Assembly: GCA_964016885.1 (NCBI GenBank)
Contig: OZ024741.1
Coordinates: 364,374,001-364,438,000, forward strand
DNA length: 64,000 nucleotides
From: Eledone cirrhosa
Lineage: Eukaryota
Direction: 5' to 3'
The position numbers and the translations under genes are program-made. Shown here piece after piece: positions 7,291-64,000 of the stretch. Numbering within the stretch: the first letter of the stretch is position 1; each line of letters begins with the position of its first letter. The notes below the pieces were generated by a model. The model did not search any database and was not told where the DNA came from. It saw only the letters and a program-made list of their open reading frames with translations.

Positions 7291-7320
7291 CTAATATGAT
7301 TCCACATGTATTTTATCTGT

Positions 7321-7520: not shown

Positions 7521-8176
7521 TCAATCGACCTGTTATGCTCTAAATTAAAATCCTGCCAAGGTTAACTTTGCTTTTCATATTTCCAGTATTGATAAAATAT
7601 ATTACCACTACCAGTCAAGTACTGAGGTCAATTTCATCAACTAAACTCTCCTACAAATATATGTGGCCTTGATACAATGTTAGAAATTTATATATTTATG
7701 AAAGTAACTGTTGGCACCAGGAAGAGCATTCAGTCATAAAACATTGTCTCAAAAAGGATCCTGTGATGAGTATTGAGCTTATCATGAGACCTGCAAGGTT
7801 AATCTATATTTTAGCAGGGAAAAATGGCCTTAAAATGGTTTTGGAATGAAGGTTCTACCACTATATAATGTTACCCTTTAAAGTTGGCCAGATCAGAGGA
7901 GTGTGCACAATATATTTTGAGGGAACCTAATCACATCAAGTTCTCATCCTTTTATTCTGTTTTGTTACTTGTAGGTATATCATATATTCTGCATGTACAT
8001 ATATAAATCTATAACCCATACATACATCATATGTATTTAGCACTGATTACTAAAACACTTAATCAACTGCTTGAAATAGGGTGACAGTGCATTTGGAACC
8101 TACAATTTACAAACATCTGAAAAATGTCACAATAAACTGCACTGCTGCACAAATGTAGAAAAGAAAATGGAGCGTA

Positions 8177-17100: not shown

Positions 17101-20100
17101 TGGTCTTTAGCATCTACTCTCTACTAGTCCCTGTCTCCTTACCTGAGCAGTGAAAACATGCCTTTGGTCTTTAGCATCTACTGTCTACTAGTCACTGTCT
17201 CCTTACCTGAGCAGTGAAAACATGACTTTGGTCTTTAGCATCTACTGTCTACTAGTCACTCTCACCTTACCTGAGCAGTAAAAACATGCCTTTGGTCTTT
17301 AGCATCTACTGTCTACTAGTCACTGTCACCTTATCTGAGCAGTGAAAACATGCCTTTGGTCTTTAGCATCTACTGTCTATTAGTCACTGTCACCTTACCT
17401 GAGAAGTGAAAACATGCCTTTGGTCTTTAGCATCTACTGTCTACTAGTCACTGTCACCTTACCTGAGCAGTGAAAACATGCCTTTGGTCTTTAGCATCTA
17501 CTGTCTACTAGTCACTGTCACCTTACCTGAGCAGTAAAAACATGCCTTTGGTCTTTAGCATCTACTGTCTACTAGTCACTGTCTCCTTACCTGAGCAGTG
17601 AAAACATGCCTTTGGTCTTTAGCATCTACTGTCTACTAGTCACTGTCACCTTACCTGAGCAGTAAAAACATGCCTTTGGGCTTAAGCATCTACTGTCTAC
17701 TAGTCACTGTCACCTTATCTGAGCAGTGAAAACATGCCTTTGGTCTTTAGCATCTACTGTCTACTAGTCACTGTCTCCTTACCTGAGCAGTGAAAACATG
17801 CCTTTGGTGTTTAGCATCTACTGTCTACTCGTCACTGTCACCTTATCTGAGCAGTAAAAACATGCCTTTGGGCTTTAGCATCTACTGTCTACTAGTCACT
17901 GTCACCTTATCTGAGCAGTAAAAACATGCCTTTGGGCTTTAGCATCTACTGTCTACTAGTCACTGTCACCTTATCTGAGCAGTGAAAACATGCCTTTGGT
18001 CTTTAGCATCTACTGTCTACTAGTCACTGTCTCCTTACCTGAGCAGTGAAAACATGACTTTGGTCTTTAGCATCTACTGTCTACTAGTCACTGTCACCTT
18101 ACCTGAGCAGTAAAAACATGCCTTTGGTCTTTAGCATCTACTGTCTACTAGTCACTGTCACCTTATCTGAGCAGTGAAAACATGCCTTTGGTCTTTAGCA
18201 TCTACTGTCTATTAGTCACTGTCACCTTACCTGAGCAGTGAAAACATGCCTTTGGTCTTTAGCATCTACTGTCTACTAGTCACTGTCACCTTACCTGAGT
18301 AGTGAAAACATGCCTTTGGTCTTTAGCATCTACTGTCTACTAGTCACTGTCTCCTTACCTGAGCAGTGAAAACATGCCTTTGGTCTTTAGCATCTACTGT
18401 CTATTAGTCACTGTAACCTTACCTGAGCAGTGAAAACATGCCTTTGGTCTTTAGCATCTACTGTCTATTAGTCACTGTCACCTTACCTGAGCAGTGAAAA
18501 CATGCCTTTGGTCTTTAGCATCTACTGTCTATTAGTCACTGTCACCTTACCTGAGCAGTAAAAACATGCCTTTGGTCTTTAGCATCTACTGTCTCCTAGT
18601 CACTGTCTCCTTACCTGAGCAGTGAAAACATGCCTTTGGTCTGTAGCATCTACTGTCTACTAGTCACTGTCACCTTACCTGAGCAGTAAAAACATGCCTT
18701 TGGTCTTTAGCATCTACTGTCTCCTAGTCACTGTCTCTTTACCTGAGCAGTGAAAACATGCCTTTGGTCTTTAGCATCTACTGTCTACTAGTCACTGTCA
18801 CCTTACCAGAGCAGTAAAAACATGCCTTTGGTCTTTAGCATCTACTGTCTACTAGTCACTGTCACCTTACCTGAGCAGTAAAAACATGCCTTTGGTCTTT
18901 AGCATCTACTGTCTACTAGTCTCTGTCACCTTACCTGAGCAGTGAAAACATGCCTTTGGTCTTTAGCATCTACTGTCTACTAGTCACTCACCTTACCTGA
19001 GCAGTGAAAACATGCCTTTGGTCTTTAGCATCTACTGTCTACTAGTCACTGTCAACTTACCTGAGCAGTAAAAACATGCCTTTGGTCTTTAGCATCTACT
19101 GTCTACTAGTCACTGTCAACTTACCTGAGCAGTAAAAACATGCCTTTGGGCTTTAGCATCTACTGTCTACTAGTCACTGTCAACTTACCTGAGCAGTAAA
19201 AACATGCCTTTGGTCTTTAGCATCTACTGTCTACTAGTCACTGTCAACTTACCTGAGCAGTAAAAACATGTCTTTGGTCTTTAGCATCTACTGTCTACTA
19301 GTCACTGTTACCTTACCTGAGCAGTGAAAACATGCCTTTGGTCTTTAGCATCTACTGTCTACTAGTCACTGTCACCTTACCTGAGCAGTGAAAACATGCC
19401 TTTGGTCTTTAGCATCTACTGTCTACTAGTCACTGTCACCTTACCTGAGAAGTGAAAACATGCCTTTGGTCTTTAGCATCTACTGTCTACTAGTCACTGT
19501 CTCCTTACCTGAGCAGTGAAAACATGCCTTTGGTCTTTAGCATCTACTGTCTACTAGTCACTGTCACCTTACCTGAGCAGTGAAAACATGCCTTTGGACT
19601 TTAGCATCTACTGTCTACTAGTCACTGTCAACTTACCTGAGCAGTAAAAACATGCCTTTGGTCTTTAGCATCTACTGCCTACTAGTCACTGTCAACTTAC
19701 CTGAGCAGTAAAAACATGTCTTTGGTCTTTAGCATCTACTGTCTACTAGTCACTGTTACCTTACCTGAGCAGTGAAAACATGCCTTTGGTCTTTAGCATC
19801 TTCTGTCTACTAGTCACTGTCACCTTACCTGAGAAGTGAAAACATGCCTTTGGTCTTTAGCATCTACTGTCTACTAGTCACTGTCTCCTTACCTGAGCAG
19901 TGAAAACATGCCTTTGGTCTTTAGCATTTACTGTCTACTAGTCACTGTCACCTTACCTGAGCAGTAAAAACATGCCTTTGGGCTTTAGCATCTACTGTCT
20001 ACTAGTCACTGTCACCTTACCTGTGCAGTGAAAACATGCCTTTGGTCTTTAGCATCTACTGTCTACTAGTCACTGTCTCCTTACCTGAGAAGTAAAAACA

Positions 20101-23100
20101 TGCCTTTGGTCTTTAGCATCTTCTGTCTACTAGTCACTGTCACCTTACCTGAGAAGTGAAAACATGCCTTTGGTCTTTAGCATCTACTGTCTACTAGTCA
20201 CTGTCACCTTACCTGTGCAGTGAAAACATGCCTTTGGTCTTTAGCATCTACTGTCTACTAGTCAATGTCACCTTACCCGAGCAGTAAAAACATGCCTTTG
20301 GGCTTTAGCATCTACTGTCTACTAGTCACTGTCACCTTACCTGAGCAGTGAAAACATGCCTTTGGTCTTTAGCATCTACTGTCTACTAGTCACTGTCACC
20401 TTATCTGAGCAGTGAAAACATGCCTTTGGTCTTTAGCATCTACTGTCTACTAGTCACTGTCACCTTATCTGAGCAGTAAAAACATGCCTTTGGGCTTTAG
20501 CATCTACTGTCTACTAGTCACTGTCACCTTACCTGAGCAGTGAAAACATGCCTTTGGTCTTTAGCATCTACTGTCTACTAGTCACTGTCACCTTATCTGA
20601 GCAGTAAAAACATGCCTTTGGTCTTTAGCATCTACTGTCTACTAGTCACTGTCTCCTTACCTGAGCAGTGAAAACATGACTTTGGTCTTTAGCATCTACT
20701 GTCTACTAGTCACTGTCACCTTATCTGAGCAGTGAAAACATGCCTTTGGTCTTTAGCATCTACTGTCTATTAGTCACTGTCACCTTACCTGAGCAGTGAA
20801 AACATGCCTTTGGTCTTTAGCATCTACTGTCTACTAGTCACTGTCACCTTATCTGAGCAGTGAAAACATGCCTTTGGTCTTTAGCATCTACTGTCTATTA
20901 GTCACTGTCACCTTACCTGAGCAGTGAAAACATGCCTTTGGTCTTTAGCATCTACTGTCTACTAGTCACTGTCACCTTATCTAAGCAGTGAAAACATGCC
21001 TTTGGTCTTTAGCATCTACTGTCTACTAGTCACTGTCACCTTACCTGAGCAGTGACAACATGCCTTTGGTCTTTAGCATCTACTGTCTACTAGTCACTGT
21101 CTCCTTACCTGAGCAGTGAAAACATGCCTTTGGTCTTTAGCATCTACTGTCTACTAGTCACTGTCACCTTATCTGAGCAGTGAAAACATGCCTTTGGTCT
21201 TTAGCATCTACTGTCTATTAGTCACTGTCACCTTACCTGAGCAGTGAAAACATGCCTTTGGTCTTTAGCATCTACTGTCTACTAGTCACTGTCACCTTAT
21301 CTGAGCAGTGAAAACATACCTTTGGTCTTTAGCATCTACTGTCTACTAGTCACTGTCACCTTACCTGAGCAGTGAAAACATGCCTTTGGTCTTTAGCATC
21401 TACTGTCTACTAGTCCCTGTCTCCTTACCTGAGCAGTGAAAACATGCCTTTGGTCTTTAGCATCTACTGTCTACTAGTCACTGTCTCCTTACCTGAGCAG
21501 TGAAAACATGACTTTGGTCTTTAGCATCTACTGTCTACTAGTCACTCTCACCTTACCTGAGCAGTAAAAACATGCCTTTGGTCTTTAGCATCTACTGTCT
21601 ACTAGTCACTGTCACCTTATCTGAGCAGTGAAAACATGCCTTTGGTCTTTAGCATCTACTGTCTATTAGTCACTGTCACCTTACCTGAGAAGTGAAAACA
21701 TGCCTTTGGTCTTTAGCATCTACTGTCTACTAGTCACTGTCACCTTACCTGAGCAGTGAAAACATGCCTTTGGTCTTTAGCATCTACTGTCTACTAGTCA
21801 CTGTCACCTTACCTGAGCAGTAAAAACATGCCTTTGGTCTTTAGCATCTACTGTCTACTAGTCACTGTCTCCTTACCTGAGCAGTGAAAACATGCCTTTG
21901 GTCTTTAGCATCTACTGTCTACTAGTCACTGTCACCTTACCTGAGCAGTAAAAACATGCCTTTGGGCTTAAGCATCTACTGTCTACTAGTCACTGTCACC
22001 TTATCTGAGCAGTGAAAACATGCCTTTGGTCTTTAGCATCTACTGTCTACTAGTCACTGTCTCCTTACCTGAGCAGTGAAAACATGCCTTTGGTGTTTAG
22101 CATCTACTGTCTACTCGTCACTGTCACCTTATCTGAGCAGTAAAAACATGCCTTTGGGCTTTAGCATCTACTGTCTACTAGTCACTGTCACCTTATCTGA
22201 GCAGTAAAAACATGCCTTTGGGCTTTAGCATCTACTGTCTACTAGTCACTGTCACCTTATCTGAGCAGTGAAAACATGCCTTTGGTCTTTAGCATCTACT
22301 GTCTACTAGTCACTGTCTCCTTACCTGAGCAGTGAAAACATGCCTTTGGTCTTTAGCATCTACTGTCTACTAGTCACTGTCACCTTATCTGAGCAGTAAA
22401 AACATGCCTTTGGGCTTTAGCATCTACTGTCTACTAGTCACTGTCACCTTATCTGAGCAGTAAAAACATGCCTTTGGGCTTTAGCATCTACTGTCTACTA
22501 GTCACTGTCACCTTATCTGAGCAGTGAAAACATGCCTTTGGTCTTTAGCATCTACTGTCTACTAGTCACTGTCACCTTATCTGAGCAGTAAAAACATGCC
22601 TTTGGGCTTTAGCATCTACTGTCTACTAGTCACTGTCACCTTATCTGAGCAGTAAAAACATGCCTTTGGGCTTTAGCATCTACTGTCTACTAGTCACTGT
22701 CACCTTATCTGAGCAGTGAAAACATGCCTTTGGTCTTTAGCATCTACTGTCTACTAGTCACTGTCACCTTATCTGAGCAGTAAAAACATGCCTTTGGGCT
22801 TTAGCATCTACTGTCTACTAGTCACTGTCACCTTATCTGAGCAGTAAAAACATGCCTTTGGGCTTTAGCATCTACTGTCTACTAGTCAATGTCACCTTAT
22901 CTGAGCAGTGAAAACATGCCTTTGGTCTTTAGCATCTACTGTCTACTAGTCACTGTCACCTTATCTGAGCAGTAAAAACATGCCTTTGGGCTTTAGCATC
23001 TACTGTCTACTAGTTACTGTCACCTTATCTGAGCAGTAAAAACATGCCTTTGGGCTTTAGCATCTACTGTCTACTAGTCACTGTCACCTTATCTGAGCAG

Positions 23101-26100
23101 TGAAAACATGCCTTTGGTCTTTAGCATCTACTGTCTACTAGTCACTGTCACCTTATCTGAGCAGTAAACACATGCCTTTGGGCTTTAGCATCTACTGTCT
23201 ACTAGTCACTGTCACCTTATCTGAGCATTGAAAACATGCCTTTGGTCTTTAGCATCTACTGTCTACTAGTCACTGTCACCTTATCTGAGCAGTAAAAACA
23301 TGCCTTTGGGCTTTAGCATCTACTGTCTACTAGTCACTGTCACCTTATCTGAGCAGTAAAAACATGCCTTTGGGCTTTAGCATCTACTGTCTACTAGTCA
23401 CTGTAACCTTATCTGAGCAGTGAAAACATGCCTTTGGTCTTTAGCATCTACTGTCTACTAGTCACTGTCACCTTATCTGAGCAGTAAAAACATGCCTTTG
23501 GGCTTTAGCATCTACTGTCTACTAGCCACTGTCACCTTATCTGAGCAGTAAAAACATGCCTTTGGGCTTTAGCATCTACTGTCTACTAGTCACTGTCACC
23601 TTATCTGAGCAGTGAAAACATGCCTTTGGTCTTTAGCATCTACTGTCTACTAGTCACTGTCACCTTATCTGAGCTGTAAAAACATGCCTTTGGGCTTTAG
23701 CATCTGCTGTCTACTAGTCACTGTCACCTTATCTGAGCAGTAAAAACATGCCTTTTGGCTTTGGCATCTACTGTCTACTAGTCACTGTCACCTTATCTGA
23801 GCAGTGAAAACATGCCTTTGGTCTTTAGCATCTACTGTCTACTAGTCACTGTCACCTTATCTGAGCAGTAAAAACATGCCTTTCGTCTTTAGCATCTACT
23901 GTCTACTAGTCACTGTCACCTTACCTGAGCAGTGAAAACATGCCTTTGGTCTTTAGCATCTACTGTCTACTAGTCACTGTCACCTTATCTGAGCAGTAAA
24001 AACATGCCTTTGGTCTTTAGCATCTACTGTCTACTAGTCACTGTCACCTTATCTGAGCAATGAAAACATGCCTTTGGTCTTTAGCATCTACTGTCTACTA
24101 GTCACTGTCACCTTACCTGAGCAGTGAAAACATGCCTTTGGTCTTTAGCATCTACTGTCTACTAGTCACTGTCACCTTATCTGAGCACTGAAAACATGCC
24201 TTTGGTCTTTAGCATCTACTGTCTACTAGTCACTGTCTCCTTACCTGAGCAGTGAAAACATGCCTTTGGTCTTTAGCATCTACTGTCTACTAGTCACTGT
24301 CTCCTTACCTGAGCAGTGAAAACATGCCTTTGGTCTTTAGCATCTACTGTCTACTAGTCACTGTCACCTTATCTGAGCAGTAAAAACATGACTTTGGTCT
24401 TTAGCATCTACTGTCTACTAGTCACTCTCACCTTACCTGAGTAGTAAAAACATGCCTTTGGTCTTTAGCATCTACTGTCTACTAGTCACTGTCACCTTAT
24501 CTGAGTAGTGAAAACATGCCTTTGGTCTTTAGCATCTACTGTCTATTAGTCACTGTCACCTTACCTGAGCAGTGAAAACATGCCTTTGGTCTTTAGCATC
24601 TACTGTCTATTAGTCACTGTCACCTTACCTGAGCAGTGAAAACATGCCTTTGGTCTTTAGCATCTACTGTCTACTAGTTACTGTCACCTTACCTGAGCAG
24701 TAAAAACATGCCTTTGGTCTTTAGCATCTACTGTCTCCTAGTCACTGTCTCCTTACCTGAGCAGTGAAAACATGCCTTTGGTCTTTAGCATCTACTGTCT
24801 ACTAGTCACTGTTACCTTACCTGAGCAGTGAAAACATGCCTTTGGTCTTTAGCATCTACTGTCTACTAGTCACTGTCACCTTACCTGAGCAGTGAAAACA
24901 TGCCTTTGGTCTTTAGCATCTACTGTCTACTAGTCACTGTCTCCTTACCTGAGCAGTGAAAACATGCCTTTGGTCTTTAGCATCTACTGTCTACTAGTCA
25001 CTGTCACCTTACCTGAGCAGTAAAAACATGCCTTTGGGCTTTAGCATCTACTGTCTACTAGTCACTGTCACCTTACCTGTGCAGTGAAAACATGCCTTTG
25101 GTCTTTAGCATCTACTATCTACTAGTCACTGTCTCCTTACCTGAGCAGTAAAAACATGCCTTTGGGCTTTAGCATCTACTGTCTACTAGTCACTGTCACC
25201 TTACCTGAGCAGTGAAAACATGCCTTTGGTCTTTAGCATCTACTGTCTACTAGTCACTGTCACCTTACCTGAGCAGTAAAAACATGCCTTTGGGCTTTAG
25301 CATCTATTGTCTACTAGTCACTGTCACCTTATCTGAGCAGTGAAAACATGCCTTTGGTCTTTAGCATCTACTGTCTACTAGTCACTGTCACCTTATCTGA
25401 GCAGTGAAAACATGCCTTTGGTCTTTAGCATCTACTGTCTACTAGTCACTGTCACCTTATCTGAGCAGTAAAAACATGCCTTTGGGCTTTAGCATCTACT
25501 GTCTACTAGTCACTGTTACCTTACCTGAGCAGTGAAAACATGCCTTTGGTCTTTAGCATCTACTGTCTACTAGTCACTGTCACCTTATCTGAGCAGTAAA
25601 AACATGCCTTTGGTCTTTAGCATCTACTGTCTACTAGTCACTGTCACCTTATCTGAGCAGAGAAAACATGCCTTTGGTCTTTAGCATCTACTGTCTACTA
25701 GTCACTGTCACCTTATCTGAGCAGTGAAAACATGCCTTTGGTCTTTAGCATCTACTGTCTACTAGTCACTGTCTCCTTACCTGAGCAGTGAAAACATGCC
25801 TTTGGTCTTTAGCATCTACTGTCTACTAGTCACTGTCTCCTTACCTGAGCAGTGAAAACATGCCTTTGGTCTTTAGCATCTACTGTCTATTAGTCACTGT
25901 CACCTTACCTGAGCAGTGAAAACATGCCTTTGGTCTTTAGCATCTACTGTCTACTAGTCACTGTCACCTTATCTGAGCAGTAAAAACATGCCTTTGGTCT
26001 TTAGCATCTACTGTCTACTAGTCACTGTCACCTTACCTGAGCAGTAAAAACATGCCTTTGGTCTTTAGCATCTACTGTCTACTAGTCACTGTCACCTTAT

Positions 26101-27524
26101 CTGAGCAGTGAAAACATGCCTTTGGTCTTTAGCATCTACTGTCTATTAGTCACTGTCACCTTACCTGAGCAGTGAAAACATGCCTTTGGTCTTTAGCATC
26201 TACTGTCTACTAGTCACTGTCACCTTACCTGAGCAGTAAAAACATGCCTTTGGTCTTTAGCATCTACTGTCTACTAGTCACTGTCACCTTATCTGAGCAG
26301 TGAAAACATGCCTTTGGTCTTTAGCATCTACTGTCTATTAGTCACTGTCACCTTACCTGAGCAGTGAAAACATGCCTTTGGTCTTTAGCATCTACTGTCT
26401 ACTAGTCACTGTCACCTTATCTGAGCAGTAAAAACATGCCTTTGGTCTTTAGCATCTACTGTCTACTAGTTACTGTCACCTTACCTGAGCAGTAAAAACA
26501 TGCCTTTGGTCTTTAGCATCTACTGTCTACTAGTCACTGTCACCTTATCTGAGCAGTGAAAACATGCCTTTGGTCTTTAGCATCTACTGTCTATTAGTCA
26601 CTGTCACCTTACCTGAGCAGTGAAAACATGCCTTTGGTCTTTAGCATCTACTGTCTATTAGTCACTGTCACCTTACCTGAGCAGTGAAAACATGCCTTTG
26701 GTCTTTAGCATCTACTGTCTACTAGTCACTGTCACCTTACCTGAGAAGTGAAAACATGCCTTTGGTCTTTAGCATCTACTGTCTACTAGTCACTGTCAAC
26801 TTACCTGAGCAGTGAAAACATGCCTTTGGTTTTTAGCATCTACTGTCTACTAGTCACTGTCACCTTATCTGAGCAGTGAAAACATGCCTTTGGTCTTTAG
26901 CATCTACTGTCTACTAGTCACTGTCACCTTACCTGATCAGTGAAAACATGCCTTTGGTTTTTAGCATCTACTGTCTACCAGTCACTGTCACCTTATCTGA
27001 GCAGTGAAAACATGCCTTTGGTCTTTAGCATCTACTGTCTACTAGTCACTGTCACCTTACCTGAGCAGTGAAAACATGCCTTTGGTCTTTAGCATCTACT
27101 GTCTATTAGTCACTGTCACCTTACCTGAGCAGTGAAAACATGCCTTTGGGCTTTAGCATCTACTGTCTACTAGTCACTGTCACCTTACCTGAGCAGTAAA
27201 AACATGCCTTTGGTCTTTAGCATCTACTGTCTACTAGTCACTGTCACCTTACCTGAGCAGTAAAAACATGCCTTTGGTCTTTAGCATCTACTGTCTACTA
27301 GTCACTGTCACCTTACCTGAGCAGTAAAAACATGCCTTTGGTCTTTAGCATTTACTGTCTACTAGTCACTGTCACCTTACCTGAGCAGTGAAAACATGCC
27401 TTTGGTCTTTAGCATTTACTGTCTACTAGTCACTGTCACCTTACCTGAGCAGTAAAAACATGCCTTTGGTCTTTAGCATTTACTGTATACTAGTCACTGT
27501 CACCTTACCTGAGCAGTGAAAACA
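8177..27524. repeat. 64-bp tandem satellite array, ~302 copies, very homogeneous
   Basis: Unit ccttacctgagcagtgaaaacatgcctttggtctttagcatctactgtctactagtcactgtca; starts at 8177, 8241, 8305 and so on; no unique spacers. Confidence 0.98.
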
Positions 27525-27870
27525 CCTCTGGCCCTCAGCAATCACCAGTCTGTTATTCAGTGTCACCTTAGCTGAGCAGTGAAAACACTTCTTTGGCCCT
27601 CAGCAGTCTGATATTCTGTATTGCCTTAGCTGAGTGATGAAAACAGACCTCTGGATCTCAGCAATCTGCAGTCTGTTTTTCAGTGTCACCTTAGCTAAGC
27701 AGTAAAAACACACCTCTAGCTCTCAACAGTCTGTTATTCAGTGTCATCTTAGCTGAGCAGTGAAAACACACTTCTGGCTCTCAGTAGTCTGTTATTCAGT
27801 GTCACCTTAGCTGTGCAGTGAAAACACGCCAACGGCCCTCATCAGTCAGTCAGTAGCCTGTTAGTCAGTG
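27525..27870. repeat. Five to six diverged monomers of the 64-bp satellite at its right edge
   Basis: Recurrent gtcaccttagctgagcagtgaaaacac with variable remainder and length. Confidence 0.85.
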
Positions 27871-33410: not shown

Positions 33411-33834
33411 CCCCAAACTCCAGATAAATAATGAGAAAAAGTTAGTTATATTAGTGAAAGTTAGTTATATTAGTGAAATTTTAGTTATATTAGTGAAAAG
33501 TTAGTTATATTAGTGAAATTTTTGATTATTTTCAAAATTATTTGAAACACATAGACTGAGGATTTTATTAGAAATATGATAAGGAAAGAGTTAAAATATA
33601 GAATTAAGTAAAAAAATTTAATCCCCAAACTCCAGATAAATAATGAGAAAAAGTTAGTTATATTAGTGAAAGTTAGTTATATTAGTGAAATTTTAGTTAT
33701 ATTAGTGAAAAGTTAGTTATATTAGTGAAATTTTTGATTATTTTCAAAATTATTTGAAACACATAGACTGAGGATTTTATTAGAAATATGATAAGGAAAG
33801 AGTTAAAATATAGAATTAAGTAAAAAAATTTAAT
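33411..33834. repeat. Apparently perfect 212-bp tandem duplication, each copy holding four 19-20-bp subrepeats
   Basis: 33411-33622 matches 33623-33834; subunit ttagttatattagtgaaa. Confidence 0.92.
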
Positions 33835-34583
33835 CTGTTGTTTTGGAAATAAATTGATATCCCCCCTCCGCCAGTAAAACTGAAGGAAAATATAAGCTTA
33901 GCAGGTGCTTCAGTTCTTAGAATATGAAACTTTGAGTCTTGAAGACTTTGCTGTTGACTGATGTAAATAGATATCCAATTAATCTATTTTGATTTTATCC
34001 CACTGATGAGGTTTTTTTTTTCATGGTACATTATCTGATTGTGTAAAGAACATTGTCATCATCATTTAACTTTCGTTTTCCTTGCTAGAATTAGTTGGAC
34101 AGGTTGTCACAGACTTCATCAATATTCAAGCAGGAATACTAACCTCTCAGATGGGATGGGGGCTTACGTTTAGCTTACATATATTCCCGCATTCTACTGA
34201 GTGCTCGGATGAGCTGAGGGCACACATCTTGCTTACATATGGGTGAATGACTTACCCCAAAGGATAGCAAGGGAGATATGTTAAAAACCTGTCTAACTTC
34301 TGGAGCTCATTCTTGCAGATGACGATCTTCATCGTCATGGCAGTATATAGGGGAGTGGTTTGAAGACCCAGGGCACAAGATGTTTCCATCACTATGGGCT
34401 CAACTATAAAATTAATACAGAGCAATAAGTATTTTGACAGCTTGTAGTATCAGCCCATCAGGCAAGCAGCTTGGGTTTCACACTAATATTACCAGGTTGC
34501 TACTGGGGAAAGTATACCTTTCTTTGTTGTTTTGTGACAGTATTTACTAAATGTTTTACTGATTTCAAATGCTATAATTTAAT

Positions 34584-35960: not shown

Positions 35961-36915
35961 GACTATCAGTTGTCAGACTATCAGTTGTCAGACTACCAGT
36001 TGTCAGACTACCGGTTGTCAGACTATCAGTTACCAGACTACCATTTACCGGACTACCATTTACCGGACTACCATTTACCAGACTACCAGTTACCAGACTA
36101 CCATTTACCGGACTACCATTTACCAGACTACCAGTAACCAGACTATCAGTTACCAGACTATCAGTTACCAGACTACCAGTAACCAGACTACCATTTACCA
36201 GACTACCAGTAACCAGACTATCAGTTACCAGACTATCAGTTACCAGACTACCAGTAACCAGACTACCATTTACCAGACTATCAGTTACCAGACTATCAGT
36301 TACCAGACTATCAGTTACCAGACTATCAGTTACCAGACTATCAGTTACCAGACTACCAGTTACCAGACTATCAGTTACCAGACTACCATTTACCAGACTA
36401 CCAGTAACCAGACTACCATTTACCAGACTACCATTTACCAGACTACCATTTACCAGACTACCATTTACCAGACTACCAGTTACCAGACTACCATTTACCA
36501 AACTACCAGTAACCAGACTACCAGTTACCAGACTACCAGTAACCAGACTACCAGTAACCAGACTACCAGTAACCAGACTACCATTTACCAGACTATCAGT
36601 AACCAGACTACCAGTAACCAGACTATCAGTTACCAGACTACCATTTACCAGACTACCATTTACCAGACTACCAGTAACCAGATTACCAGTTACCATACTA
36701 CCAGTTACCAGTCTACCATTTACCAGACTACCACTAACCAGACTACCAGTTACCATACTACCAGTTACCAGTCTACCATTTACCAGACTACCATTTACCA
36801 GACTGCCATTTACTAGACTACCATTTACCAGACTACCATTTACTAGACTACCATTTACCAGACTACCATTTACCAGACTACCATTTACCAGACTATCAGT
36901 TACCAGACTATCAGT
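35961..36915. repeat. 15-bp minisatellite, ~63 copies
   Basis: Unit ccagactaycakt(t/a)a; ends ~70 nt before the kinase exon at 36986. Confidence 0.96.
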
Positions 36916-53688: not shown

Positions 53689-56142
53689 TAATAGGGTTGT
53701 GGGTGTTACGATGGAGGGCAATAGGGTTGTGGGTGTGACATTGGAGGGTAATAGGGTTGTGGGTGTTACGTTGGAGGGTAATAGGGTTGTGGGTGTGACA
53801 TTGGAGGGTAATAGGGTTGTGGGTGTTACGTTGGAGGGTAATAGGGTTGTGGGTGTGACATTGGAGGGTAATAGGGTTGTGGGTGTGACGTTGGAGGGTA
53901 ATAGGGTTGTGGGTGTGACGTTGGAGGGTAATAGGGTTGTGGGTGTGACGTTGGAGGGTAATAGGGTTGTGGGTGTGACAATGGAGGTTAATAGGGTTGT
54001 GGGTGTTACTTTGGAGGGTAATAGGGTTGTGGGTGTTACGTTGGAGGTTAATAGGGTTGTAGGTGTTACGTTGGAGGGTAATAGGGTTGTGGGTGTTACG
54101 TTAGAGGGTAATAGGGTTGTGGGTGTGACGTTGGAGGGTAATAGGGTTGTGGGTGTGACGTTGGAGGTTAATAGGGTTGTGGGTGTTACGTTGGAGGGTA
54201 ATAGGGTTGTGGGTGTTACTTTGGAGGGTAATAGGGTTGTGGGTGTTATGTTGGAGGTTAATAGGGCTGTGGGTGTTACGTTGGAGGGTAATAGGGTTGT
54301 GGGTGTTACGTTGGAGGGTAATAGGGTTGTGGGTGTTACTTTGGAGGGTAATAGGGTTGTGGGTGTGACGTTGGAGGTTAATAGGGTTGTGGGTGTTACG
54401 TTGGAGGGTAATAGTGTTGTGAGTGTTACGTTGGAGGGTAATAGGGTTGTGGGTGTTACGTTGGAGGGTAATAGGGTTGTGGGTGTGACATTGGAGGGTA
54501 ATAGGGTTGTGGGTGTGACATTGGAGGGTAATAGGGTTGTGGGTGTGACATTGGAGGGTAATAGGGTTGTGGGTGTTACGTTGGAGGGTAATAGGGTTGT
54601 GGGTGTTACGTTGGAGGGTAATAGGGTTGTGGGTGTGACGTTGGAGGGTAATAGGGTTGTGGGTGTTACGTTGGAGGGTAATAGGGTTGTGGGTGTTACG
54701 TTGGAGGGCAATAGGGTTGTGGGTGTTACGTTGGAGAGTAATAGGGTTGTGGGTGTGACGTTGGAGGGTAATAGGGTTGTGGGTGTGACGTTGGAGGGTA
54801 ATAGGGTTGTGGGTGTTACGTTGGAGAGTAATAGGGATGTGGGTGTTACGTTGGAGGGCAATAGGGTTGTGGGTGTTACGTTGGAGGGTAATAGGGTTGT
54901 GGGTGTGACATTGGAGGGTAATAGGGTTGTGGGTGTGACATTGGAGGGTAATAGGGTTGTGGGTGTTACGTTGGAGGGTAATAGGGTTGTGGGTGTTACT
55001 TTGGAGGGTAATAGGGTTGTGGGTGTGACATTGGAGGGTAATAGGGTTGTGGGTGTGACATTGGAGGGTAATAGGGTTGTGGGTGTTACGTTGGAGGGTA
55101 ATAGGGTTGTGGGTGTTACGTTGGAGGGCAATAGGGTTGTGGGTGTTACGTTGGAGGGTAATAGGGTTGTGGGTGTTACGTTGGAGGGCAATAGGGTTGT
55201 GGGTGTTACGTTGGAGGGTAATAGGGTTGTGGGTGTTACGTTGGAGGGTAATAGGGTTGTGGGTGTGACATTGGAGGGTAATAGGGTTGTGGGTGTTACG
55301 TTGGAGGGTAATAGGGTTGTGGGTGTTACTTTGGAGGGTAATAGGGTTGTGGGTGTTACGTTGGAGGGTAATAGGGTTGTGGGTGTGACATTGGAGGGTA
55401 ATAGGGTTGTGGGTGTGACATTGGAGGGTAATAGGGTTGTGGGTGTGACATTGGAGGGTAATAGGGTTGTGGGTGTTACGTTGGAGGGTAATAGGGTTGT
55501 GGGTGTTACTTTGGAGGGTAATAGGGTTGTGGGTGTTACGTTGGAGGGTAATAGGGTTGTGGGTGTTACGTTGGAGGGTAATAGGGTTGTGGGTGTGACG
55601 TTGGAGGGTAATAGGGTTGTGGGTGTGACGTTGGAGGGTAATAGGGTTGTGGGTGTTACTTTGGAGGGTAATAGGGTTGTGGGTGTGACATTGGAGGGTA
55701 ATAGGGTTGTGGGTGTTACGTTGGAGGGTAATAGGGTTGTGGGTGTTACTTTGGAGGGCAATAGGGTTGTGGGTGTTACGTTGGAGGGTAATAGGGTTGT
55801 GGGTGTTACTTTGGAGGGTAATAGGGTTGTGGGTGTTACGTTGGAGGGTAATAGGGTTGTGGGTGTTACTTTGGAGGGTAATAGGGTTGTGGGTGTGACA
55901 TTGGAGGGTAATAGGGTTGTGGGTGTTACGTTGGAGGGTAATAGGGTTTTGGGTGTTACGTTGGAGGTTAATAGGGTTGTGGGTGTTACGTTGGAGGGTA
56001 ATAGGGTTCTGGGTGTGACATTGGAGGGTAATAGGGTTGTGGGTGTTACGTTAGAGGGTAATAGGGTTGTGGGTGTTACGTTGGAGGGCAATAGGGTTGT
56101 GGGTGTTACGTTGGACGGTAATAGGGTTGTGGGTGTGACATT
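53689..56142. repeat. 30-bp G-rich minisatellite, ~82 copies, decaying to ~56257
   Basis: Unit taatagggttgtgggtgttacgttggaggg. Confidence 0.98.
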
Positions 56143-56287
56143 GTAGGGTAAAAGGAAGGCAGGTGTGACGTTGGAGGGCTGTAGGGTGATATGTGTGATG
56201 TTGAAAGAAAATAGGGTGATATCTGATGTTGAAGGGAATTAGGGTGGTAGGTGTCACCTTTTTTTAGGTATCAAAAAATAAGATTTT

Positions 56288-56930: not shown

Positions 56931-58647
56931 TAGATGGTCAAAGGCAAAACGATGGCCACTGACGTCGCCTGAGCTTTTAGTTGTGTACTTGAGAATTCAT
57001 CGGTTTCCAATCAAGCAGTGAGGAAATTTGGCTTAGTGTTAGAGGTCATTACCTCCCTCCCCCAACATTCCCCTTCATCAGTCACCCGCGTTTCTCAGTG
57101 ATAGAGGTCATCACCACCCTCCCCGCATGGCCTGTGTGTGGTCATAGATGAGTCATCGAGAAGCAGTCGCTAAGATCAACACCATTTCATCAAAGCAGAT
57201 ATTATTTTACCTACCCAGGCAACGCTGGGTACTGCTGCTAGTACTTTAATAAAACAGAAAAATCTATATATAAATTTGAGCAACTTCCGTCCGTCACAAT
57301 TTGTGTGTGTAAAAGGAAGGAAGAGGATGATGAAAAAAACTATAGCAAAACAGCAGCTCGCATTCCATTTGCTACACTGTGTGAGTGTGTGTTTTTGTAA
57401 ATGTATGTGGTTGTGTGTGTGAATGTATGTGTGTGTATTTTTGTGTTTCTGTATTTGCGCGTTTATATTTATATACTCATACATATAAATGTATGCATAT
57501 GCATACACACACCCACACATATACACATATGCATCAGCATGTTGAAAAGTATCCTAGTTATTAAAATTCAATGTTGAGTGTATAATTTCCTATGGACTTT
57601 TCAGTAAGAGATACTGGTGCTGTGTTTTCCCTGAAAAAGTTTGTGAAACTTTGCTCTAGCTTTTAGCTGAATCTAAAAGTCTTTTTCGTAGTGTGTAACT
57701 TGATTTAGCAGATTATGACATATCAATACATTGGCATATATCACTGAATAATCCATCTCATTTCACAAATATTGATTATGTATTGATCTCTTACGTTAAT
57801 AATACCATCTGCCCACCAGCCTAATCAGAGTTGTTGTACCAGTGGTTACTAATCCATGGGTAAAAGAGTCATGAAGACAAAATATGTTACTTTTGGAATA
57901 TTTTATAAATCCAATTTATTTTTCTTGCATATTCCCATATCCAGTTGGAGTAGATATAAACTTTATTTAAACTACTGTTATAATATCATAATGACTAAGG
58001 GAAAAAAGAAAGATAAATGAAAAAAGAGGAGGTGAAGTTGAAAGACCATGGCTTGGCAAAATTGTAGAGTGTTCTTATTGGAGTTATCTCTATTATTTAT
58101 TTTTGATTTTAAATACTCATACAGCAGTGTTTGCGTTTTACAGTGAAATTCCGTAATAACAAAATTCAAGGGGTGCAAAAATAAAAATTTTTTGTAATAA
58201 AAAATTCTTTATAATGAGATCGACGAAAACAAATCTAGCGTTTGTTTATTTTTACCTTGGTGGATTGTCAGTATCAGTAGAGTGACAGACACCATACTTT
58301 GCAGCATAGAGTTATGAGGGAATTTTATGTGTAATTGCTTGAATAATCCCAGTTGATCAAACGTTTTCGACTCATATGTGAGACCCAACAATATTAGTAT
58401 TTAATATGTAGAACACTGACATATTTTCTCCCCGACTATATTAGTGTCAAGTATAAAACAAGTCAGTAACAATATAAATATCTTGAATATTATTTACTAA
58501 CCATAATGATGACAGTTTTATTATCATAGAGAATGTGGCATCCCTTCAAAACTACACGGTTAACCACTGATCAAATTCTGGCTTGAAGGCTTAAATATTA
58601 CCAAAATGCATTTTGTTTGTGACACTACAAAGAAAGTACAGCAAAAG

Positions 58648-58826
58648 GATGGCAGTACCAGTAGAGGGTTGGATGCCATACTTTGCAGCATAGTTATGCT
58701 CCTTTATGTTTTGAGTTCAAATCCCGCTGAGGTTAACTTCGCCTTTCATCCTTACAGGGGTCGATAGAATAAAGTACCAGTAATGCACTGGAATAATTGC
58801 TGGCCTTGTGCCAAAAGTAGAAACAA
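58648..58826 (+). mobile_element. Nin/Deu-type tRNA SINE
   Basis: gagttcaaatcccgctgaggttaacttcgcctttcatccttacaggggtcgatag... Confidence 0.75.
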
Positions 58827-59168
58827 TTATTATTATTAATATTATGAGAGGAATCTATCCCTGAAAGGTCAGGAAGAGGTGACAAACATATACATTGCAT
58901 CCGTCATCTACCGACTGACCATTGTGCGTTGTCCTGGTCAATTCCTGACTGCACAGGAGTGTTTGCTCTTTTGCCTTTTCTAGCAGGGATGCATTCCAAT
59001 GGTCAGGCTGTCCATTTTCTGCCAACACCCGCTAAGTGGAGGACTAGCATGCTGTGGCTCATGATACACAAAATATGTGTGTACGTATGTATATATATAT
59101 ATTGAATCATATATGAAATGTTCATGTAAATAAACATTTTTGTAGTCTCGCTATGAAATGCATGTATA

Positions 59169-59378
59169 CTTTAGCATTTAAACGAGCCATATCCGGCCGG
59201 AATTCTCTCACCTCTTTCTGTTCAAACTGGCTGAAAGTAGCTGCTCATACTAATGTTAAGGTATTGTTCTCAAAATAAATAATATCAAAATCTCATAGAT
59301 TCGATTTTATGTGAGATAAAGCCTTTACCATGAAAATACAATAGTAAATATAGAGTAATGTAAATGCTAAAGGGTCAA
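59169..59378 (+). mobile_element. piggyBac-type MITE
   Basis: Body and right TIR match the 35179 copy; left TIR eroded. Confidence 0.8.
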
Positions 59379-60019
59379 TAATAGTTAAGAAAAGTGGTCA
59401 GTGGTGCCTTCTTCTTTCTTTTCCATCTCCAGGAATTTTTCCCAACTATTATTATGGTCATTTGTTTTGGGACATACACATTTCAAACTTTCACAATGCT
59501 TTGTAAGTCAACGTTTTTGTTTTCATTTACACTCACATGTGTACATACACTCTCCCTCACATACACCTTTATAATTTCAAAATTAGATCTAATTATGATC
59601 TTTATTGCCATATTGATGTTTTGATTTTTTATAATTTTATTTGAAACATAATCATGAGACTGAATTATCAAAACAAAAACAGTCACTTTTGTTTTGTACT
59701 ATATATATTCTACTATTTCCATTATCAGGAAATCTCTTAATTTTCTTAAAAAATATTTATATCTAATGTCTTCTCTTACAAACATTTAAACATATCTTTG
59801 TGTTGTATTAATTGGTGGCCTGTATGGTAGTGGTAGAAATAGGTCATGGTAATCTCCTTAACATTTTCCTTGTCTATTTTCTTATTCTTTTGTTTTTCTA
59901 AGATTGCATTCTATAGTATAGACTTTTATTGATATATTTTTTCAGGTTATTATTTACAATCATTTACTTAAAATCATTTAAGTTGGCACAATTCATGTTA
60001 TGTGCTTTATCTTTTATCG

Positions 60020-60645
60020 ATCAACAGAACAACCTATTCATGAAATTAATGTGTTAGTGGCTGAGCATTCCACTGACATGGGCACCCTTAATCCTTTAGC
60101 ATTTAAAGTTGGCTGTCCATCAAAAGAAAAATACCCTCATCTTACCACCTAAGAGACCTTATAGTAAAATGCTATTTATGCCAAGCACAAACCAGAACTT
60201 ACAATTTAAAACTGCATTGAATATATCTTAACCCTTTAGTATTTAAACCGGCCGTATGCGGCCAGACTTCTCGCACCTCTTTCTGTTCAAGCTAGCTGTA
60301 ACTGACCACTCATACCAATGTTATGGTATTGTTCTCAAAATAAATATCAAAATCTCATAGATTCAATATTATGTGAGATAATGCCTTCACCATGAAAATA
60401 CAATAGTAAATATAGAGTAATGAAAATGTTAAAGGGTTAACGTAATTCTCAGGAAAATTTAGTATAACACATGTGACAAGGCTAACCCTTTGAATTACAG
60501 GTACAACTCATTTTTGCCAGGTTAGTGAACTGGAGAAACAAGAAATAAATTGCCTTGCTCAAGGACATAATGTGTCACCATGTATCCAACTGATGACTTT
60601 ACAGTCATGAACTGAACATCCCAACCATTAAGCCACACACTTTCA
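60020..60645 (-). mobile_element. tRNA SINE interrupted at a TTAA by MITE sequence (60088-60440)
   Basis: The SINE halves rejoin as caccc-TTAA-cgtaattctcagg; full MITE at 60228-60440 and a TIR-bearing segment at 60088-60231. Confidence 0.75.
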
Positions 60646-60887
60646 CATATTATTCACTACTTTAAAATCCAATCATTATTTATTGTTCTGGATAAACTAG
60701 TTTCCCTTTTTATCTTTCTTATCAATGATTCATTTACCTCTGATTTTATCTTGAAAATACTTTGGAAAAGACAATGGATCATGATTGGAGACTAAATTAC
60801 TTTGTGATTTTCTTTTTTTCCTAATACAAGTAAAAGAAAATTCATAGAAAATAAAATAAATGTATTTAGAAAATGCCTTTTAAAGTT

Positions 60888-61842
60888 ATTTCCATATTAA
60901 TACTTTGGCAGTAAAAAAATAAAAGTGTTGGGGAGAATAATAGCTGGGATATTTTCTTAGAATAGATAAGTCCATTGATTACCATATTTCTAATGACAAA
61001 CACAGCTTTATGATTTTAAAATCTTTTTGAAAATAATCAAACATTTTGAGGGATTTTGTACTGTAGCAAGCAATGGCACTATTTTATCGCTGTTGAATAA
61101 TTTGGTTGTGCTTTGTCACTCGCCAGCCCTTAGGGTTGGTGGCATATGAATACTTCCACCCAGCCGTTGCTTCGCGCCTTTTTTTCAGTTGTAGCTAACA
61201 GTTGCGCTTTGCATTTCGTCGACACCAGCAGCTCGCAAATGGCTTCCCCGGTTGAGGCACCATCTTTCAAAACTAGCTAGCAGTTGCGCTTTGCATTTTG
61301 TCAACACCAGCAGCTCGTAATGGCTTCCCTACTCCTGTGACTTTGTTCTCTAACAATAAGAGTAGTTTCATTTTACGGCTTTTAAGAAATTTACTGTAAC
61401 CAACAACTTGGTTCCAAAGTACTTGCCTTTAAGAGATTTGCCATTACATGTCAGCTTTGTTACACAAAATCTCTGTACTTCACACACTTTGTACATGCGT
61501 TCACGTCAAGCAAAAATAAATCTTTATTATGTTTAACATGCCTTCTGATCTTTTCCGCAACCATGAAACACGTAACCTTACATCTCTATCTTCTTTAAGG
61601 ATACAATCTCCGCTACCAATATAGAGCCCAGCTAAAGGCTACTCGCTAAAGTGGTGACCCTGATGTGATTTCCATATTAATACTTTGGCAATAAAAAAAT
61701 AAAAGGGTTGGGGGAGAATAATAGCTGGGATATTTTCTTAGAATAGATAAGTCCATTGATTACCATATTTCTAATGACAAACACAGCTTTATGATTTTAA
61801 AATCATTTTGAAAATAATCAAACATTTTGAGGGATTTTATAC
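60888..61842. repeat. 174/175-bp direct repeats (60888-61061 and 61668-61842) flanking the LTR-PBS insert
   Basis: Near-identical copies from atttccatattaatactttggca to gggattttrtac, with a few differences. Confidence 0.93.
61062..61669 (+). mobile_element. Single LTR (61062-61650) plus tRNA-Trp primer-binding site (61652-61669)
   Basis: Ends TGTAGCAAG ... CTCGCTAAA (imperfect inverted termini), AATAAA near 61515, internal ~57-bp repeat. TGGTGACCCTGATGTGAT matches the complement of the tRNA-Trp 3' end as I recall it (TGGTGACCCCGACGTGAT) at 16/18, both differences CpG to TpG. Confidence 0.8.
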
Positions 61843-62023
61843 ATTTACTCATTATGAACCACACTATGTTAGGGCTACTGCTGATTAATCCTAGTTTGCT
61901 TTATATGTAAATAAGCATCTTCAATTGATATTTTATTTGCACTATATGCAAATGAGCATGTCTAACATTCGTTTCATGCACAAAAACATAGATCTAGCCT
62001 ATTTTTGTCTCAGTACCAAGTGA

Positions 62024-62325
62024 AGGTGCATGGCTTAGTGGTTAGAGCATTGGGCTTGCAATCGGAAGGTTGTGAGTTTGATTCTTGGACCGGGTGATTC
62101 ATTGTGTCCTTGAGCAAGACACTTTATTTTCCATGTTGCTCCAGAAATGAGTTGCCACGTCATTGGTGTCAAGCTGTATCGGCCTTTGCCTTTCCCTTGG
62201 TGGTGTGGAGAGGGGAGGCTGGTATGCATTGGAAACTGCTAGTCTTCCACTAACACATTTGCCCGGACTTGTGCCTTGGAGGGAAACCTTCTAGGTGCAA
62301 ATCCCATGGTCATTCGTGACCGAAG
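62024..62325 (+). mobile_element. tRNA-derived SINE, full-length-like
   Basis: tggcttagtggttagagc head, gagtttgattc, tgtccttgagcaagacactt core. Confidence 0.75.
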
Positions 62326-62442
62326 TGAGTAAATGAAATGGAGGAAAGATGAACATTCAGAAACAGCTGATAATCATTCCCACATGCTACTGAGATAGCT
62401 GTGATATATTGATAGCTTAAACATTCATAGTGAGACTCCTGC

Positions 62443-62471
62443 ATGTGTGTGTGTATATATATATATATATA

Positions 62472-62502
<31 letters not shown>

Positions 62503-62542
62503 CATGTGTGTGTGCGTATGTATATATATATATATATATGCA

Positions 62543-62580
<38 letters not shown>
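62443..62580. repeat. Compound (TG)n/(TA)n microsatellite
   Basis: Read directly from the sequence. Confidence 0.95.
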
Positions 62581-63214
62581 GTGCATTCTTTACATCAACT
62601 GACAAAAATGAGAGAGGACGGTGCATGGGTACTTAAGACTTGGGATACCTTTTCATCTAAATTTGTGTAATTCGTCTAAAGGCCTAATTTGTTCTGTCTT
62701 TCTCTCTACCTGTTTTGATATATCCCCATGTGCACTGAAATGAACGGTATCAACATTAATGCACCAAGACAAGAGTGATTTCCAGTGGTTGACTGAGGAG
62801 ATGGAATTGTCCGTCTTTCTGTTATTTTTTCCATTCTTTGTCTGTGCACCTCCTATTTTGAATATATATATTTAAAAGACAACAAAAGGCTGGACTCGAA
62901 ACATTTTTTTATGTTGTAAAACCACAATATACATTTCTAGGACCTTGTTACATCATCAGATCATGACATAATACTTTGGCGATGTCATCAGGTGTAGATT
63001 GCAAAGATTAGGTAATCGATAACAGGGCTACAGCAAACATGAACAATGAATAAACTTGATTCAGAGACGGCCCGCCATTTGGTGTTATTGTTGTGACGAA
63101 CCACCTCCAAATGTGTATGAGAAAGACAAGGTCATCTGACCTGGCTGGACTCACAACAGGACATCTCATCTAACCCATGCCAGCATGGAAAAGTGGACAT
63201 TAATGATGATGATG

Positions 63215-63337
63215 TACATATGTATGTGTGTGTATATATATATATATATATATACTGTATATATATACATATTTAAATGAATTCTTTGTATATATGTATA
63301 TACATGTGTGTGCATATATATATATATATGTGTGTGT

Positions 63338-63415
<78 letters not shown>

Positions 63416-63641
63416 CTATATATATATATACACATATTTGCATATTTGTGTATAAACATAGTTTAACTTATGCCAAAGTCTCCATGGGTTAGAATGCAAG
63501 CAAAACTAATACCAGAGTGCTTTGCTCGCATGTATATATATAAAAACATAAATATATATATATATATATACAAACACATAGATGTACACACACACATATA
63601 TACCCATATAAGCACACACACACACATATACATATATATAT
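63215..63641. repeat. Compound (TA)/(TG)/(TC)/(CA) microsatellite region
   Basis: Read directly from the sequence. Confidence 0.9.
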
Positions 63642-64000
63642 GGTGGCTGCCAACTCGTTTTCGAGTACGGCCACTACTTTATATCCATGTAGGAGAACCC
63701 CTACCGATGCGCTGAACGAGTGTGACTTTTTAGTCCAGCCAGCGACTTGAAAACTCTGGTACAAACACTACACTTGTGACAATTATTGACACATAGTGCT
63801 GGCCCCATGGTACCATGTGATGACAAGTGCAGAGAGATCTCCAGATATAAAGCAATGCCTGTGCCGTGAAGCTTTTATAGTGAGCAAAGGCACTGCACAA
63901 AGCCAGTCCCACTCTCTTAACCGAGATGATATTTACCAAAAAGAAGAACAAGTCAACATCATTGGATACCATCAGGGTTGCAGGTGTTATATCAGAGTTT

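Follow-up and report, generated by a model that had tools for sequence, protein, structure and literature searches.

A single LTR with a tRNA-Trp-type primer-binding site between long copies of host DNA: a possible solo remnant of one-ended insertion

How does a single long terminal repeat (LTR) come to lie in host DNA with a primer-binding site (PBS) at its right end and no further internal sequence, between two long copies of one host segment? An ordinary solo LTR is defined by the lack of a PBS and by a short target duplication, whereas the locus described here, which lies in a window of 64,000 nucleotides (the whole stretch of DNA that was analysed), has a PBS and a duplication of 174 bp. 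Its features are the following.

60888..61061, plus strand: host segment, copy 1, 174 nt; its 3' part of about 90 nt lies within a high-copy host repeat that the LTR interrupts
61062..61650, plus strand: single LTR, 589 nt, with TGT...AAA ends; member of a repeat family, apparently CsRn1-like (termini compared with PMC2582038)
61192..61329, plus strand: internal direct repeat of the LTR, 57 nt, with units 61192-61248 and 61274-61329 that are 91% alike
61515..61520, plus strand: the sole AATAAA in the LTR, a candidate poly(A) signal by motif match
61651, plus strand: 1-nt spacer (G) from LTR end to PBS, as read in the window sequence
61652..61669, plus strand: PBS of tRNA-Trp type, 18 nt, the last 2 nt of which (AT) are common to copy 2
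61668..61842, plus strand: host segment, copy 2, 175 nt; the host-repeat match reaches slightly further than after copy 1

The TG at 61062 starts the insert and directly abuts copy 1 of the host segment. Copies 1 and 2 are 97.1% identical (BLAST E 6e-81) and differ by four substitutions and one indel of 1 nt, so that the insert is old enough for these changes. The duplicated segment is host DNA: contig depth and comparison within the window place its first half in single-copy sequence and its second half in a high-copy repeat, and for one window copy of this repeat the alignment extends 13 nt more behind copy 2 than behind copy 1, which is what would be expected had the LTR cut into the host repeat. 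Between the two duplicates the likeness is 97%; to the longer matches at other places of the window it is only about 70–87%. An earlier note on this DNA had described the 174-bp duplication with its shared AT at the second copy and had taken the duplicated segment as host sequence, and both descriptions stand. No second copy of the LTR was found within the 64-kb window, and an Rfam search of 58000-64000 gave no match in the insert, the hits being microsatellite look-alikes and a weak snoRNA match in copy 2.

The stretch is present in three public short-read runs of one sample (X1–X3), which may be the source of the window. The right junction lies within an X1 contig that covers 61541-61740 with no differences and at a depth of 9.8, similar to that of the unique flanks, and it is therefore not an assembly error. 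Among the 24 pieces listed (there are 8773 others) no clean contig runs across the left junction; the only listed piece that crosses it is X3 record 18 (60981-61283, depth 9), which has 26 differences and 3 gaps over the host-repeat/LTR junction and may be a mosaic path, a paralog or another allele. No joint of an empty allele was seen in the contigs of X1–X4, which show presence only and cannot be phased across 94 identical bases. Depth holes in X2 and X3 over 61681-61727 were not counted as evidence.

Both edges of the LTR are supported by other copies in the short-read contigs. Summed contig depth is about 140–1280 over 61070-61633, compared with about 7–16 in the unique left flank, and at least 13 contigs in X1 and at least 14 in X2 start at 61062 and have flanks that differ (agreement 0.44 and 0.41). 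The right edge was examined with the 22 and 20 contigs aligned to 61566-61745 in two runs; one other copy aligns up to 61650 and then differs (two records, probably of one locus), and among the 12 of 27 loose-end rows listed two have the same end motif, one of them over 30 letters only, and one has a canonical CA end. The LTR limits that had been proposed from the sequence are thereby supported at both sides. A drop in depth at 61634 had suggested an earlier LTR end followed by an insertion of 14 nt, a candidate that was ruled out by the contigs aligned over 61566-61745. Compared with the 107 metagenome loci listed the LTR gave no meaningful match, with a single 26-nt hit at E 0.007.

To which kind of element does the LTR belong? 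CsRn1-like gypsy elements are described with TGT...AAA or TGT...ATA ends, a tRNA-Trp PBS and 4-bp target duplications (PMC2582038; PMC3630058). The LTR begins with TGT at 61062 and ends with AAA at 61648-61650, and the adjoining PBS matches the dominant tRNA-Trp motif at 16 of 18 positions, this motif being that of the metagenome loci; the target duplication at this locus is 174 bp and not 4 bp. By its LTR ends and PBS, the LTR would fit a CsRn1-like element. The AAA end was also considered as a defect that caused a faulty insertion, and this was ruled out since AAA ends are normal in CsRn1-like elements (PMC2582038). The long frames downstream of the same PBS (26 of 42 scanned) comprise nine with DUF7041, six with DUF1759, one with a retroviral matrix domain, two with an aspartyl protease and eight with none. 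We take DUF7041 to be a marker of CsRn1-type gag and DUF1759 to be one of BEL/Pao gag. Since the same PBS also precedes DUF1759 and retroviral matrix frames, the PBS by itself is not enough to assign the clade, for which the CHCC Gag motif, the GPY integrase motif and the phylogeny of the reverse transcriptase are further criteria.

At which point does element sequence stop? The plus strand stops on the primer tRNA at modified base 58. An 18-mer with at most two mismatches to one of about 50 tRNA ends is expected by chance at 0–4 nt from a given point with a probability of about 5e-6. The PBS of the window agrees with the dominant motif at 16 of 18 positions and lies 1 nt after the LTR, which bears out the tRNA-Trp-type PBS of the earlier note; both differences are at CpG-type positions. 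The dominant form occurs in 89 of the 110 metagenome matches listed and the form of the window in 3 of them, and the dominant motif ends a tRNA-Trp(CCA) in L165 (ARAGORN, relaxed threshold) but a tRNA-Arg in L168. The claim of "exactly 18 nt" appears to hold for the stop at the PBS end; as a count, 18 is the upper reading, because the AT common to the PBS end and copy 2 leaves 16–18 bases as element-derived. The homology at the right junction is weak when taken alone: 2 nt are shared, which 10% of random positions would also give, and agreement at 4 of the last 5 bases would occur at 1.4%. In 31 of the 110 relatives listed the PBS is followed by a T, the base that also stands there in the window. 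Plus-strand synthesis is reported to halt on the primer tRNA at the PBS end (PMC7197481).

A second copy of the LTR-PBS unit is suggested by the depth tables. In both runs a depth residual fits one contig on 61633-61669 almost exactly (depth 3.0 and 5.0), and this fit predicts the matching bin of a separate contig depth table (12.45 vs 12.4 and 4.4 vs 4.4). Since X1 has the contig of the present locus separately, the residual would be a second copy of LTR end and PBS. The likeness of this copy to the window appears to end at 61669, base 18 of the PBS, where it may depart from the window or simply end; the loose-end rows listed for these alignments are again 12 of 27.

Relatives that bear the PBS were collected by a metagenome scan that gave at least 107 loci with at least 110 matches. 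Among the 110 matches listed, 77 have CA at 0–4 nt upstream of the PBS and 5 have AAA at 1–2 nt upstream, and the commonest class, with 32 matches, has a CA end at a distance of 1 nt from the PBS. In 10 of the 107 loci listed the PBS has a copy of the LTR end just behind it, against 2.0 expected, and six of these 10 loci are of one LTR family with mutually unrelated flanks (11–23 of 60 identical) beyond an 8-nt tail, which indicates that PBS-bearing right ends do get integrated. These six loci (L158, L169, L171, L180, L187 and L226) consist of the LTR, 1 nt, an 18-nt Trp-type PBS and the 8-nt LTR-end copy before the flanks diverge, with two PBS units each in L169 and L226; it looks like a family whose right end was rebuilt behind a retained PBS and which then spread. 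Around PBS-ended relatives no 4-bp duplication was found at L187, and L166 gave no start site. Among the 83 of 107 loci with at least 300 nt upstream there was no second locus of LTR, PBS and long duplication; only 36 of the 107 have at least 1000 nt.

Other arrangements of the same parts were seen in the metagenome loci. L222, L201, L166, L135 and L159 have stacked LTR-end/PBS units, three of them in L222, and in several loci of this group a few tRNA-like bases past the PBS are followed by an LTR-end-like stretch. L195 (1-2666, minus strand) holds a miniature LTR element with 185-nt LTRs that are 98% alike, a PBS, a 96-nt internal part with a polypurine tract, and a 4-bp target duplication. 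A scan of viral contigs gave 120 chance-like matches, with neither tRNA nor PBS context.

Which events could have left such a structure? When HIV-1 and ASLV vectors integrate by one end only, host synthesis starts from the free 3' end, which is held by a short homology, and duplications of hundreds of bp result (PMC5041404), and full-length HIV-1 DNA can retain the PBS at its end, also in wild type, and is then a poor substrate for integrase (bioRxiv 2021.08.29.458043). We tentatively read the locus, with somewhat less than even confidence, as the solo-LTR remainder of a full-length DNA whose right end had retained the primer copy and which entered the genome by one-ended integration and host repair. 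Plus-strand synthesis would have halted once 18 nt of the primer tRNA had been copied, so that LTR, spacer and PBS formed the right-hand 3' end, and this PBS-bearing end would have been handled poorly by integrase. Integrase would have joined the left end at 61061/61062, where the exact TG start is observed. With the shared AT that is seen in the sequence, the free 3' end would then have annealed to the host DNA lying 174 bp upstream and primed host synthesis back over the insertion site, giving the observed duplication of 174 bp. Later recombination between the two identical LTR+PBS repeats would have removed the internal part. One-ended integration of PBS-retaining DNA and LTR-LTR recombination predict exactly an LTR and a PBS between long duplications, and we rank this route first because each of its steps has precedent.

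On the model of one-ended integration, one end of the locus is exact, at the first base of the family (the left junction itself being read from the window sequence), and the other end combines a homology of 2 nt with a host duplication of 174 bp; by analogy, the polarity of the locus also fits priming from the free 3' end. The proposal that one end was joined by integrase and the other by host repair therefore agrees with the one-ended model (PMC5041404), with integrase at the left end as its conjectural part. Of two further statements of the earlier note, the premise that solo LTRs lack a PBS fails, and the view that the integrated molecule had to be LTR-only strong-stop DNA is not supported. 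Full-length DNA can retain the PBS at its end (bioRxiv 2021.08.29.458043), and its collapse into a solo LTR would leave an identical structure. Against the favoured route stand the two CpG-type differences of the PBS, since a new copy of the tRNA would be expected to be perfect at first; with 7 of 29 listed family differences CpG-type and 19 CpGs kept, the chance of decay at both PBS sites is roughly 0.07. One locus cannot tell whether internal sequence was once present. Over all routes taken together, it is quite probable that the right junction was made by a plus-strand end that had stopped on the tRNA.

The routes in which internal sequence never entered the genome share this right end. Strong-stop DNA that is free consists of one strand with its 5' end at U3, so integrase could not join it until the complementary strand had been made. 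In the version that uses integrase, which we regard as unlikely, an LTR-only strong-stop intermediate was inserted: its double-stranded left LTR was joined by integrase, while the plus strand, stalled at the PBS after the plus-strand jump, invaded host DNA with its stalled 3' end. The same junctions are predicted and no later recombination is needed, and strong-stop intermediates are reported to accumulate in plant retrotransposon particles (PMC7197481). Among the PBS matches listed, 11 of 110 repeat the 3' part of the PBS directly downstream and 19 of 110 continue tRNA-like (by a loose pattern with no chance control), which suggests that the 3' end of the PBS often mis-primes. The cost of this version is that the left end must be finished by strand displacement with no plus-strand extension and that integrase must use that molecule, for which no precedent was found in the open-access literature. 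If integrase had no part, free strong-stop DNA could have been captured to fill a broken chromosome or a collapsed fork, with both ends joined by microhomology repair and the duplication formed in the same repair event. Ty1 replication intermediates are inserted at yeast breaks, with cDNA-specific bases in 40 of 56 3'-LTR insertions (bioRxiv 2023.12.13.571550). The terminal inverted repeat runs on into the two host bases that precede the TG, and these bases may represent a brief homology to an end left unprocessed, but a match of 2 nt is weak, and the left end is intact to the first base of the family. Break repair often would not preserve an intact element end, and we consider such capture distinctly improbable. 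It is doubtful on the whole that plus-strand strong-stop DNA, made up of the LTR and an 18-nt tRNA copy without internal sequence, became fixed as such in the germ line of an animal, whether through integrase or through break repair; if true, strong-stop inserts would be a countable class that records where reverse transcriptase halts on the primer tRNA in vivo.

The structure could also have been shaped after a regular insertion, which we judge improbable. A normal element with a 4-bp duplication may have suffered a break that was repaired from the empty allele by microhomology, or the element may have lain within one unit of a tandem duplication that was there before it and then been deleted, with the break at the PBS end by chance. 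Models of pseudo-duplication and deletion have been proposed, including one for an LTR with a truncated internal part and a 111-bp duplication (PMC5488345), and the window itself contains at 33411-33835 a tandem duplication of 212 bp, 100% identical and with no insert between its copies, so duplications of such size arise here by other means. The two differences in the PBS would be no difficulty, for they need not postdate the insertion. Both versions demand that the break fall within about 3 nt of the PBS end, and a random break hits this 3-nt stretch with a probability of 0.0006–0.0009 for a normal-sized element with 3.5–5 kb of internal sequence; the coincidence weakens to about 0.03 if the parent had about 100 nt of internal sequence, and since the scan selects odd cases these figures are an upper view of the evidence. 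The older-tandem version requires in addition that the LTR begin exactly at the end of copy 1. There is finally the reading that LTR and PBS are the normal unit of a subfamily, or that the 174-bp segment is derived from the element, and another Trp-primed family does have a PBS fixed near its right end. Contig depth and the right-edge alignments largely refute it: other copies end at 61650 or earlier, and over its first half the duplicated segment is single-copy. The duplicates are also far more alike to each other than to the longer window matches (97% vs about 70–87%), and the right end has no integrase-type terminus, so that this reading is very improbable.

On the favoured reading, the solo remnant of a one-ended insertion, the locus links primer retention at a DNA end and one-ended integration, both laboratory observations, in a natural non-retroviral LTR copy, and it supplies a searchable signature (LTR, 16–18 nt of PBS and a long duplication), which helps to ask how long duplications around some LTRs arise, a question left open in PMC5488345. 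It also warns against taking a PBS next to a lone LTR as proof of a truncated 5' end. The copy itself is most likely inert, one dead locus with no evident function. The window contains other repeats as well. A satellite of 19.4 kb (8176-27587) has a 64-bp unit in about 303 copies with 95% matches; a G-rich 30-bp tandem array of 83 copies (53689-56178) shows an extreme GC skew, and both of its strands contain long open frames; a 15-bp array of about 64 copies (35961-36915) is open in three frames and is possibly a repetitive coding exon; and a SINE-like dispersed repeat at 62020-62142, also present at 7319 and 39013, has a head with a weak likeness to tRNA (Rfam 25.5 bits, below cut-off).

How does the locus compare with known systems? 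Long duplications around single LTRs are already published for HERV-K (HML-2), and the form with LTR and PBS only is without found precedent: no natural copy of this form with a long duplication was found in the open-access literature, subscription papers being outside the scope, and the accessible parts of PMC12471100 and PMC4558846 contain none. In HML-2, 8 of 451 putative duplications exceed 10 bp and six are at least 61 bp (PMC5488345), and five of the eight loci with duplications above 10 bp are solo LTRs (PMC5488345 Table 2). Like the present locus, HML-2 thus has single LTRs with duplications of 61–250 bp, and at 6p25.2 one LTR with a truncated internal part and a duplication of 111 bp; unlike here, the accessible part of that study describes no locus of LTR and PBS only, and it shows empty sites for two HML-2 loci (PMC5488345).

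In the CsRn1 clade we find the same tRNA-Trp PBS and TGT...AAA or TGT...ATA ends (PMC2582038; PMC3630058), but the normal duplication is 4 bp, or 6 bp in one fly element, whereas the locus has 174 bp and lacks gag and pol. Capture of Ty1 in yeast resembles the locus in that reverse-transcription intermediates of the LTR region become chromosomal inserts, but it took place at induced breaks by end joining, and no long flanking duplication is described in the part of the source at hand (bioRxiv 2023.12.13.571550). The junctions of HIV-1 2-LTR circles keep the PBS at the end of full-length DNA, as is proposed here, yet these are unintegrated circles and the locus is an inherited chromosomal copy (bioRxiv 2021.08.29.458043). 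The HIV-1 and ASLV vectors show, as here, one normal end, one end joined by short homology and a long host duplication; they were studied in laboratory infection with drugs or mutants, and their aberrant ends are often truncated (PMC5041404), whereas the present locus is a natural, inherited gypsy-type copy that stops at the PBS end and has one LTR only.
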